A stretch of DNA of 64,000 nucleotides, from the IMG/VR virus record IMGVR_UViG_3300037193_001436, positions 43,210 to 107,209 of that record; one strand, 5' to 3'. Shown here one piece after another: positions 27,948 through 61,487 of this stretch; position 1 is the stretch's first letter; every line of letters starts with the position of its first letter. The position numbers were made by a program, and so were the translations under genes. This DNA comes from a virus. The notes beneath the pieces are model-generated. The model saw only the letters and a program-made list of their open reading frames with translations. It had not been told where the DNA came from and searched no databases.

Positions 27948-28207
27948 CAGGACTCCTCCGTCGGGGAGACCACTTGCTCAGTCGACGTGTGCTTCTGCAA
28001 CTCGACTGATGTCACGTTGGGAGAGGCGGCGATGTAGTCGATGAAGGTCTGAACGAACTCATCCAGATTGCCTGTCCCCCAGTCGTTTCTGTAGTTGATG
28101 GCAAAGAGCACCTCGACGCTTTGGAAGTCATCGGTGTTGAATCCAGTGAGGTAGATCCGGCCGCTCTCATAGACGGGCTGACTGGTAGTCGGATCGCTGA
28201 AAGGCAT
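27947..28207 (-). CDS. small acidic hypothetical protein
   Basis: TGATG coupled; lower GC. Confidence 0.6.
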   Translation of the reverse strand: MPFSDPTTSQPVYESGRIYLTGFNTDDFQSVEVLFAINYRNDWGTGNLDEFVQTFIDYIAASPNVTSVELQKHTSTEQVVSPTEES

Positions 28208-28227
28208 GTCAATTCCCCAGATAGTTG

Positions 28228-28899
28228 TTAGTTAGCCCCCAGGTACTCGACCTGGAAGTACGTGAGGTTGGCTCCCGCCTTGGCCAGCAGGTTTCCGCCA
28301 GCATCTTGTGACGCGAGGACTCGGATTTGGGCACCAGCACCGAATTGAAGGGTCTTGGATACCGCCGACGTGCACCCGCTCCTCTGCGTGCCCGCGACGA
28401 CGTTGTAGGCGACGTTGGTGATGATCGGGCTTCCGCCACTCGCGCCGGAGTAGACCTGGCACAGCCGAATGCCGGTCGTAGCCGAGATGTCGAAGTACAC
28501 AGCGGCGGTGACTCGGTACCGACCCGTCAAGGCAGGCATCGTCAGAACGCCTGCAGAGTAGGCGAATCCTCCCGCCGTAGAGTCCTGAGTCCAGTTGATC
28601 AGGTTGAGGGCTGACCAGGTCGCGGTGGACTGGTCGGTGGCCAGGTAGCCGAACCAGTACGGCTTGACGGCGTTGGCTGCGTTCGCGGTCGTCTGCGCCG
28701 CAGCAGCCGCAGCCACAGCCGAATCCGCCGTAGCCTGGGCCGCGTCGGCGTCTGCTTGCGCGGCGGCGACCTGCGCCGCCAGCGAAGTGTCGGTGTCGTC
28801 GCCGATCCCGATGCGCCGGTCGAGGTCAGCAACCGCCGGATACAGGGGCGAGCTGTACCACTCCTGCGATCCCTGGTCCGGAAGGTTGTAGCGGGTCAT
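28228..28899 (-). CDS. fibre-like minor tail protein (coiled coil plus beta head)
   Basis: Ala-rich heptads (AQATADSA) then C1q-like pattern GRYRVTA. Confidence 0.65.
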   Translation of the reverse strand: MTRYNLPDQGSQEWYSSPLYPAVADLDRRIGIGDDTDTSLAAQVAAAQADADAAQATADSAVAAAAAAQTTANAANAVKPYWFGYLATDQSTATWSALNLINWTQDSTAGGFAYSAGVLTMPALTGRYRVTAAVYFDISATTGIRLCQVYSGASGGSPIITNVAYNVVAGTQRSGCTSAVSKTLQFGAGAQIRVLASQDAGGNLLAKAGANLTYFQVEYLGAN

Positions 28900-59066: not shown

Positions 59067-59483
59067 TCACTTCTTGGCAGCGGCGCGCTTGTTCACCGCG
59101 ACCGGGTTGGTGCCGGTACCCGTCTCGACCTCGTCGTCGCGGTCGGCCAGCACCTCGGCCAGCGGCGTGCCGGAGTCGTCGACCAGCACACCCTCGTCGA
59201 CCGTGGCACCCTCGACGTTCTGGAAGTGCGCCAGGTAGCTCTGCAGGTCGACGCCCTGCTCGCGCATCACCTCGGGGCGCGGGAGCTGGTCCTTGGTGAA
59301 GGTCACCGGGTTCAGGTCCTCGTCCGGCTCCGGCCGGGAGTCGGCCTGCACGGTCCATCCCAGGTCGTAGTCCTTGGAGTCCAGAGTCCGGACCCGCTGC
59401 GGCCGGATCTCGTACTTGTCGTTGGCAGCCTTGGCCGAGCCGGTCGACTCGGCAGTCTTGGTAGTCGTCTTGGCGTCAGCCAC
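59067..59483 (-). CDS. hypothetical protein
   Basis: GAGGA RBS before GTG. Confidence 0.65.
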   Translation of the reverse strand: MADAKTTTKTAESTGSAKAANDKYEIRPQRVRTLDSKDYDLGWTVQADSRPEPDEDLNPVTFTKDQLPRPEVMREQGVDLQSYLAHFQNVEGATVDEGVLVDDSGTPLAEVLADRDDEVETGTGTNPVAVNKRAAAKK

Positions 59484-59631
59484 GGTCGTTCGGTCCTCTC
59501 GGATCACCCTGCTGGACTGTCCAGCCCGGGTCGATGATCTCGCCCATCTCGTCCTCGGTACGGTCGTGTGGGCAGTCAGGGCCTCGGAAGACCTCTTGAC
59601 CGTCCAGGAAGACGCACCGGGACACGTACAT
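59476..59631 (-). CDS. small hypothetical protein (51 aa)
   Basis: Hand-translated MYVSRCVFLDGQEVFRG; abuts upstream stop. Confidence 0.45.
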   Translation of the reverse strand: MYVSRCVFLDGQEVFRGPDCPHDRTEDEMGEIIDPGWTVQQGDPRGPNDRG

Positions 59632-60162: not shown

Positions 60163-60531
60163 TTACGCGTGGGCCTCGTTGTAGGCCTGCACGATCTCCT
60201 TCTTCAGGGATCCGGTCGGCGCGACGTCATAGCCGTTGTTCTGCGCCCAAATCCGCATGTCGGTCTGCGTCGGGGCTCCACTCAACGCCAGTAGAGCCTT
60301 CTTGATCGCCTTGCTGACCGGTGTGGAACCGGCCTGACTGGAGATCGCGATGAACGGTGCCAACGCTTCCTGCAGCGCCAGCCTGTGCTTCGAGCACAGA
60401 TCCGCGTCGTAGACGTCCTCTCCCAGTGCGAACACCGTCGGCAGGTCGTCGGGAATCCGAACCCCGCAGTCCACGTACTTGCGCTTCTCTTGGATCTTGA
60501 AGTCGCATCGTCGAGTCACTTCTTCAGACAT
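60163..60531 (-). CDS. lsr2: Lsr2-like protein
   Basis: F.L....YD.DL...H..L.EALAPFI dimerisation domain; RIWAQNNGYDV..G.L...IV.AY. Confidence 0.85.
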   Translation of the reverse strand: MSEEVTRRCDFKIQEKRKYVDCGVRIPDDLPTVFALGEDVYDADLCSKHRLALQEALAPFIAISSQAGSTPVSKAIKKALLALSGAPTQTDMRIWAQNNGYDVAPTGSLKKEIVQAYNEAHA

Positions 60532-60615
60532 CTCTCGGCCCTCTCCTGACCCCCTAAGGCCGCACCTCGCTCTAGCGCGGTCTAACAAGTAGGGATGGCT
60601 GAGAGTCTGGCGGAA

Positions 60616-60831
60616 CTAACAACTAGAGTCAAGTTTCTCAAACGTGATCCGTAACAGGTTCTCGGAACCGAACTCCCGTAAGCCCTTCAGTGTCAGTTTC
60701 CAGCCGGGCTCACCCGAAGGCCTGATGATCTCCATCACCAAACCCTCCTTGAGCATCCGCTGAAGCTCTCGGCCGAACTCGTAGTCGAGAGCTTCTTCCG
60801 GCGTGAGTGGTGTGTCTCCACGAAACAGCAT
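60616..60831 (-). CDS. small winged-helix-like protein
   Basis: LKEGLV...WKLTLKG, similar to 12559..12723. Confidence 0.5.
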   Translation of the reverse strand: MLFRGDTPLTPEEALDYEFGRELQRMLKEGLVMEIIRPSGEPGWKLTLKGLREFGSENLLRITFEKLDSSC

Positions 60832-60858
60832 TCTGAATCACTTATGCTCCGTAGCAGT

Positions 60859-61006
60859 TGATGGGATTCGCGTAGGGGGACCTACACGAACCGCACCTTG
60901 CAACCTCTTCCCCGAAGTTGCTCGGTGCCCCGAGTCCATCACTGGCGAGTGCGCATCCCTCGCCGGACTGGGTCGTGCTGTGTGTGTGGGGAGCTTGCGC
61001 TAGCCC
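60859..61006 (-). ncRNA. candidate structured RNA (three-way junction plus hairpins)
   Basis: Hand-folded nested stems whose mismatches become G-U pairs only on the minus strand; GCAA tetraloop. Confidence 0.45.
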
Positions 61007-61169
61007 GGCCCTTCACGGACCGGACTGTGTGATCCAACCAATGACTGCCCCTCTCCTTTGCTGACCCGCCGCCACGGCTGCCATCTCAACCGTTTGTGAG
61101 GTTTGATCACAGAGATTAACGAACCATCCACAGTTGGTAAACGGTCCTGGCCAAATTCCTGCAATCAAA

Positions 61170-61183
61170 CAAACACGTGTTTG
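61170..61183. promoter_or_regulatory. SOS-box-like palindrome CAAAC-ACGT-GTTTG
   Basis: Perfect 14-bp palindrome with N4 spacer, as in CGAAC-N4-GTTCG; AT-rich intergenic region. Confidence 0.45.
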
Positions 61184-61220
61184 AGATGCTTCAGATATCA
61201 ATCAAGCCGATACTGTGCAG

Positions 61221-61487
61221 TCACACCGTCGGCGGGCAGGTCACGCGCCGCCGGATCTCGTCCCGCTCGGCCTTCGTCAGGGCCGCGTACACGCCGCCGG
61301 GATCGGTGTTCTCGTGCATGATCTTGACCCGGCAGGCATCCCGGAACGGGCAGGTCATGCAGATCCGCTTGGCGAGCTTCTGGGTGCGGTGCTGGGTGAA
61401 GATCTCCGGGTCGACCTTGGTGCAGGGCGGCATCGGGTACTGGTCGTCGATCGGCCGGTCGAGGCTGGGACGGTAGAGCTGACCCAT
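61221..61487 (-). CDS. whiB: WhiB-family transcription factor
   Basis: C...DPEIF..AKRICMTCPFRDAC..GGVYAALT..ER. Confidence 0.85.
   Translation of the reverse strand: MGQLYRPSLDRPIDDQYPMPPCTKVDPEIFTQHRTQKLAKRICMTCPFRDACRVKIMHENTDPGGVYAALTKAERDEIRRRVTCPPTV

Follow-up and report, generated by a model that had tools for sequence, protein, structure and literature searches.

A candidate structured leader RNA upstream of ORF71 and an lsr2-like gene in an uncultivated actinophage

Several well-described RNAs offer a comparison for structured regions between the genes of a phage. In the RNA phage MS2, the coat-replicase interaction masks a start site over a long range, and this masking is relieved by upstream translation. 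The ermC gene, controlled by a leader peptide, is another case. The put RNAs of phage HK022 consist of two hairpins with conserved stem and bulge features, which make RNA polymerase read through downstream terminators. Phage T7 carries RNase III processing hairpins between its early genes.

The locus studied here comes from a 107,209-bp virus record of IMG/VR with terminal repeats. The window, that is, the whole stretch of DNA analysed (64,000 nt), corresponds to bases 43210-107209 of this record, up to the genome end, and positions below are those of the window unless stated otherwise. A gap of 389 nt (60832-61220), with whiB on one side and a 71-aa ORF (ORF71) on the other, houses the feature. 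DNA comparison was possible with two related soil metagenome contigs, L008, which covers the whole leader, and L009, which covers its last 32 nt only. The earlier note had proposed a cis-regulatory leader or a small RNA. Of the two, the leader fits best, and a functional cis-acting structured leader of the ORF71 mRNA is also our best reading overall, with a chance that we put somewhat short of even. The feature would then be the GC-rich structured portion of a ~275-nt 5' leader, which may also be an intercistronic region, and the transcript may run on into lsr2. The elements of the locus are as follows, in the order of the putative transcript.

61113-61141, minus strand: promoter-like element, TTTACC, 17 nt, TAATCT and then CT; L008 keeps TTTACT-18-TAGTCT
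61028-61057, minus strand: block B/C, with the SD-like AGGAGAGGGG at 61057-61048; kept in L008
61000-61041, minus strand: possible 13-codon upstream ORF (uORF), UUG to UAG, starting 6-7 nt after the SD-like block and spanning H-a
61002-61026, minus strand: hairpin H-a, 10 bp, loop GUGAA; -19.3 kcal/mol and z -5.4 in the window
60976-60991, minus strand: C-rich/CA-repeat linker CCCCACACACACAGCA, single-stranded; kept in L008 with one C-to-U change
60929-60972, minus strand: hairpin HX, made of the PX lower stem and GGCGAG/CUCGCC; -20.4 kcal/mol, z -2.0
60893-60928, minus strand: hairpin P2, 5 bp, 2x2 internal loop, 8 bp, loop GGGGAA; -21.4 kcal/mol, z -6.3
60865-60892, minus strand: hairpin P3, 12 bp with two G-U pairs, loop UCCC; z -6.8 in the window
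60859-60864, minus strand: CCAUCA, the 3' strand of P1, predicted mostly single-stranded
60806-60867, minus strand: 62-nt block, identical in L008 in the alignment, spanning the ORF71 AUG (60831-60829)
60616-60831, minus strand: ORF71 (71 aa), downstream of the leader; four protein homologues with 57-75% identity
60604-60632, minus strand: second promoter-like element, TTGACT, 17 nt, CAGACT and then CT; kept in L008 and L009

With regard to MS2 and ermC, the likeness is threefold: a segment further upstream is complementary to the start region of the gene that follows, an upstream SD and ORF overlap the masking strand, and hairpins between join both strands. On the other hand, sequence and architecture are unrelated, the present phage is a dsDNA actinophage known from sequence alone, and its upstream ORF has only 13 codons and a UUG start. 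Unlike the ermC type, the leader contains no stalling peptide, since the peptide of the uORF is not conserved in L008, where start, stop and length are the same. Like the put RNAs, this phage leader has tandem hairpins without spacers that follow a putative promoter, but P2 shrinks from 36 to ~16 nt between the homologues and no downstream terminators are predicted. Similarly, irregular intergenic hairpins with internal loops (P2) between phage regulatory genes recall the RNase III hairpins of T7; no helix here, however, reaches ~20 bp uninterrupted, and this is a resemblance only.

The phage and the genes around the leader

Most genes of the window are carried on the minus strand, and its gene content includes a family A DNA polymerase, an SPP1-type portal, a tail sheath and a large terminase, the last being ~60% identical to those of the Streptomyces phages BRock, GiJojo, pSt2308, Alone3 and LuckySocke. 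The phage is an uncultivated myophage lineage, a distant relation of Streptomyces phage BRock. The WhiB gene was assigned by Pfam Whib (E 3.5e-10), and the gene after ORF71 encodes an Lsr2-like protein by its Lsr2 DNA-binding domain (E 3.8e-7). The gap between whiB and ORF71 had been called the largest gene-free gap of the window, which is approximately true: in a crude ORF map filtered by GC3, it ranks second behind 27948-28663 (716 nt), the longest stretch without a high-GC3 ORF.

The GC content is ~0.53 at 61000-61200 against ~0.67 nearby, which makes an AT-rich dip. A GC drop upstream of phage lsr2 genes has been noted previously and was read as possible autoregulation (PMC8612146). The pattern TT[GT]AC-N18-20-AnnCTCT has two matches in the 107-kb genome, where 0.25 are expected, and both fall in this locus on the minus strand (61141-61111 and 60632-60602), the second promoter-like element sitting inside the 3' end of ORF71, upstream of lsr2. 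A stricter sigma-70 scan gave no promoter at the locus. Judged from the position of the first element, transcription would start near 61107.

L008 is a 16.9-kb soil contig that is syntenic with the window at ~72% nucleotide identity. An indel of ~200 nt separates the two between whiB and the leader; the sequences are again conserved from the AT-rich region on, in keeping with a promoter located there. L008 has an extra ORF of ~83 codons between whiB and the leader (4428-4678 of L008, against window ~61258), which is absent from the window. A palindrome CAAACACGTGTTTG is found at 61170-61183; its counterpart in L008, CAAGCAGTTGTTTG, is not palindromic, and only the right half GTTTGTTTGATT is kept.

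The differences of ORF71 by codon position are 20/15/32. It has no Pfam or PHROG match, and its AF2 model (pLDDT 77) predicts one helix and a beta-hairpin with weak winged-helix matches. The earlier note had placed the RNA upstream of wHTH-lsr2 genes; the order is right, that is, ORF71 and then the lsr2-like gene, and the first of them is predicted to be winged-helix-like only weakly.

No SD lies within 15 nt of the ORF71 AUG. A GUG situated 5 nt past the only GGAG near ORF71 opens a 43-codon frame (60710-60841, minus strand) that overlaps ORF71. All three loci keep this frame open; since the encoded peptide is not conserved, we rejected it as a gene. A conserved protein-coding ORF across the whole leader was rejected as well; the frames differ between homologues.

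Hairpins of the leader and their conservation

The helices described in the earlier note were all located on the minus strand at the coordinates it gives, and the three stem irregularities are G-U pairs on that strand. P2 has GCACC/GGUGC, a 2x2 GA/AA loop and an 8-bp upper stem at 60928-60893, the GGCGAG/CUCGCC hairpin lies at 60964-60944, and the CA-rich linker lies at 60991-60976. P3 is present at 60892-60865 with 12 bp, not 11. The AGC-GCAA-GCU GNRA hairpin is found at 61001-60992 in the window and is split by a 2-nt insertion in L008. The claim of a structured minus-strand RNA held in the shuffle control that had been proposed for it: the 91-nt piece folds with an MFE of -49.7 kcal/mol and a z of -6.68 (0/200 shuffles as good). 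The antisense of this piece folds to -39.5 kcal/mol (z -3.9), and the sense fold is better than the antisense by 7-10 kcal/mol both in the window phage and in L008.

The earlier note had called for homologues, and the one with a whole leader, L008, keeps hairpins, P3 with compensatory changes. At the position of H-a, L008 has a weaker 6-bp hairpin (z -1.25). HX folds there to -20.6 kcal/mol (z -2.4), and its upper stem has one compensatory change from A-U to U-A and one change from G-C to G-U. In place of the 36-nt P2, there is a mini-hairpin of ~16-18 nt with unrelated sequence, and the counterpart of P3 is an 11-bp hairpin of different sequence with the loop GCCA (z -2.8). Thus, the positions of the hairpins are kept while their sequences and lengths drift. 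Near-identity between L008 and the window is found in the blocks GTTTGTTTGATT, CCGTTTAC, TCTCTGTGATCAAACCT, AGGAGAGGGGCAGTC, GCGCAAGCTCCCCACACACA, AGTCCGGCG and GGACTCGGGG, and the 40-nt bin at the ORF71 start is 97.5% identical, compared with ~72% locus-wide. The P2/P3 stretch is the least conserved in sequence (20-45% identity), and L008 still folds hairpins at the same positions.

For P3, 6/12 pairs are changed on both sides and 2/12 on one side and all cells pair, these counts being taken from two sequences whose alignment a covariance model had fitted to the structure. In total, 96% of cells pair, compared with 31-46% once the partners are slid, and 2/500 shuffles are as good. The structure conservation index reaches 0.70; column shuffles give 0.20. 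Only one full-length homologue stands behind this comparison, and the three DNA loci known are all uncultivated. In a MAFFT alignment of the upstream leader blocks, structure conservation was equal to that of column shuffles. Moreover, the fold stability of L008 is unexceptional: z is -0.7 when it is folded as a three-way junction, -1.9 as tandem hairpins and -0.95 over the full leader.

These last two results also suit an explanation with no dedicated RNA function, in which the hairpins are intergenic GC-rich palindromes and the conserved parts are promoter or operator sites at the DNA level plus an ordinary ribosome-binding region. The operators might be targets of Lsr2 or WhiB, and the hairpins might be neutral or act as U-less terminator or insulator hairpins. 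The identity of the leader, mostly 55-80% as in the flanking genes with the start codon excepted, points the same way, as does the finding of the motifs only once in the genome and nowhere outside a small lineage. On the other hand, persistence of hairpins at fixed positions despite replaced sequence, with the six double changes in P3, argues against it. So do the wobbles, which are all G-U on the gene strand, together with the 7-10 kcal/mol worse antisense folds in both phages, and the search for a terminator-like site, which found none. We consider the absence of a dedicated RNA function the likeliest of the rivals, yet rather improbable.

The C-rich parts of the leader invite a comparison with the 6C sRNA of Actinobacteria (RF01066), which is a stand-alone transcript of two hairpins with conserved C-rich loops. 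The likeness is that of an actinobacterial-type RNA with hairpins and exposed C-rich stretches. However, no Rfam match to 6C was obtained even at E below 10, the C-rich loop of P3 is lost in L008 (GCCA), and the present RNA is a leader contiguous with an ORF. The same differences weigh on the idea that a trans-acting sRNA is processed from the leader, in which the exposed C-rich CUCCCCACACA and the P3 loop UCCCCC would bind G-rich SDs, such as GAGAGGG of lsr2 or those of host mRNAs, the way 6C or RsaE sRNAs do. The linker is indeed kept in L008 and a GAGAGGG-type SD precedes lsr2 in each of the three loci, but between the supposed sRNA and ORF71 neither a terminator nor a defined 3' end was found, and conservation is continuous into ORF71. 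Such an sRNA seems to us quite unlikely.

Two further features of the loops and repeats were seen. A UGA-GAUGG-like motif occurs in two copies (61092-61078 and 60946-60930), each of which can pair with CCAUC; the window has GAUGG in both copies and L008 has GGUGG in both, a concerted A/G difference. Kissing of the P2 loop GGGA with the P3 loop UCCC was considered and rejected, both loops being lost in L008.

Competing folds and the pairing over the ORF71 start

The earlier note had P2 and P3 enclosed by a closing helix P1 (UGAUGG 60941-60936 with CCAUCA 60864-60859), making a three-way junction. This part of the model did not stand. When 25-45 nt more of 5' context is given, the 5' strand of P1 prefers another partner: together with the 'junction' GGACUCGGG (UGGACUCGGG), it pairs with the conserved CCCAGUCC at 60972-60965. 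This pairing, PX, joins CCCAGUCC with GGACU.GGG in a lower stem that lengthens the GGCGAG hairpin into HX. With upstream context, PX reaches a pair probability of 0.86-0.99, and P1 stays at 0.01-0.12 (window) and 0.001-0.003 (L008). The three-way junction is thus unsupported because PX out-competes P1. The predicted fold in both phages has HX, P2 and P3 in tandem and leaves CCAUCAACUG single-stranded, with energies of -62.6 kcal/mol (z -5.1) in the window and -45.7 kcal/mol (z -1.9) in L008.

We kept an exchange between P1 and PX as a rival because the energy gap between the two folds is small (~1.5 kcal/mol in the window, ~3 in L008) and neither helix has a double compensatory change. The two folds are mutually exclusive and share UGG 60938-60936, so that a conformational switch of the riboswitch or protein-responsive type could let a ligand, a protein or temperature pick the fold and thereby decide what becomes of the start region downstream. 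P1 and PX are each conserved on both strands, the sole P1 change in L008 being A-U to G-U, and the junction sequence GGACUCGGGG is conserved beside the variable P2 and P3, an aptamer-like pattern. Among the features looked for in riboswitches, in two sequences only, a conserved junction and a covarying P3 were found, and the loops are not conserved. The non-conserved loops count against a switch, as does the lack of compensatory changes in P1 or PX. Moreover, PX would be the first to form during transcription and dominates the modelled ensemble, no ligand-related genes lie nearby, and no Rfam aptamer matched at E below 10. A switch is an unlikely reading. Still less probable is the bolder form of it, a new class of phage RNA switch whose P1 and PX folds interconvert on a cellular signal or a phage protein, possibly the WhiB-linked redox state or the ORF71 product, and so gate the expression of ORF71 and of the lsr2-like gene as infection begins.

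Returning to the cis-acting leader, what ties the structure to ORF71 is a long-range complementarity. The segment 61051-61028 in block B/C is complementary to the ORF71 start region 60841-60822 (-10 to +10 of the AUG), ~200 nt apart. The pairing probability is ~0.8 in the window; in L008 it is 0.99 for an 8-bp core and ~0.5 for the rest. Block B/C is the best duplex partner of the start region (-20.2 kcal/mol in the window, -17.9 in L008), and its duplex is matched by 8/1000 dinucleotide shuffles in the window and 13/1000 in L008 (p about 0.01 each). The helix emerges independently in the ensembles of both full leaders. The core 60841-60822 is identical also in L009, despite ORF71 being only 46% identical there, and the nearby L009 substitutions lie just outside it. 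Three one-sided changes fall in the upstream strand of the helix: the first, G-U to A-U, preserves pairing, the second destroys a pair, and the third costs a terminal wobble. Double compensatory changes are absent because the strand of the start region is invariant in the three loci. When the fold was begun 4 nt further upstream, a different long-range partner appeared at nearly the same energy, and RNAalifold gave an alternative pairing of ACAGCA in the linker with UGCUGU at the start codon. A local SD-sequestering hairpin of CUACGGAGCA with UGUUUCGUGG was rejected; its z is only -0.7 and it is weakened by changes in L009.

These pairings suggest the following working of the leader. The RNA would be a chain of hairpins, H-a and then HX, P2 and P3 in tandem, which bring the SD-like block with its UUG start (61057-61028) to the ORF71 start region (60841-60822). 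The two conserved segments would pair over ~20 positions and bury the ORF71 AUG, so that in this cis-acting translational control the start stays masked until the helix opens. The uORF, whose SD-like block is of the same kind as the GAGAGGG-type SD found on lsr2 in all three loci, may be translated, and the simplest opening would be the loading of ribosomes on this SD and the 13 codons behind it. The modelled pairing suggests that the two start sites are mutually masked and that ribosome loading upstream could expose the ORF71 start. Masking of the ORF71 start would be the likely job of such a leader, although as the actual mechanism it is a possibility that we rate as doubtful, and any regulatory outcome is likewise a proposal.

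If real, this would be an unclassified structured leader in a large actinophage, placed before the genes of a small regulator and of an Lsr2-like nucleoid protein, and factors of host takeover or silencing would be controlled post-transcriptionally as well as by promoters. It would also show, in a phage, a start site masked from ~200 nt away across spacer hairpins that drift. For now, the leader is a modest candidate rather than a discovery.

Relatives of the RNA and of the neighbouring genes

Rfam 15 (4227 models) gave no match at gathering thresholds in the whole window, and at E up to 10 on 60500-61400 and the L008 leader there were chance-level matches only, which differed between the homologues. 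The earlier note had recognised no tRNA or hammerhead core, and the Rfam check and ARAGORN, which found no tRNA in the window, agree with it. Self-cleaving ribozymes (hammerhead, twister, pistol, hatchet and HDV-like) were absent at E up to 10 in both homologues, and in the comparison with ribozymes the junction holds only ACUCGGG, on one strand. Neither blastn of the locus nor tblastn of ORF71 found anything in 50,697 phage records, where the WhiB and Lsr2-like proteins had distant relatives only, at most ~45% identical. IMG/VR scans with ORF71, WhiB and the ORF71 alignment gave nothing, nor did DNA patterns from the start region and the CA linker in IMG/VR or protein patterns in GTDB genomes. 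The start-region 20-mer had two matches in GTDB, one in a Flavobacterium and the other in a Thermoactinomycetaceae MAG, which is close to chance expectation. Models built from one sequence (R1) and from two (R2) had no match in BRock, GiJojo, pSt2308, Alone3 or two IMG/VR relatives. A literature search on structured RNAs in actinophages found nothing relevant. The RNA matches no known family and, on our best reading, would be a new, narrowly distributed leader.

In BRock and GiJojo, the 9 kb shown upstream of the terminase gene contain an RNA ligase besides 7-9 annotated tRNA genes. The present RNA might accordingly be a degenerate tRNA or a tRNA-like relic of such arrays in BRock-like relatives, and P3 reads GGUUCG...CGAAUCC and stacks directly on the acceptor-like P1. 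However, ARAGORN reports no tRNA here, and a 5-bp T stem and a 7-nt anticodon loop are lacking. Models R1 and R2 match nothing in the four BRock-like genomes. The T-arm-like letters are lost in L008 (GGUCGG...GUCGAUCC), which brings this candidate close to refutation, and we give it hardly any credence. The sole tRNA of the 107-kb genome is a Cys tRNA (genome 38112-38202, ARAGORN).

With regard to the neighbouring genes, a 51-aa ORF at 59476-59631 (minus strand) is the best conserved gene of the neighbourhood, with 84-90% amino acid identity in L008 and L009 and invariant Cys6, Cys20 and His22; an IMG/VR scan with it gave no relatives. The L009 contig starts 32 nt upstream of its own ORF71, and its ORF71 copy (33-266 of L009) has an in-frame TAA after 62 codons. 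Beyond this TAA, the DNA of L009 retains the promoter-like motif TTGACT...CAGACTCTC upstream of lsr2. The motif being kept past the stop, a DNA-level constraint may act on the end of ORF71.
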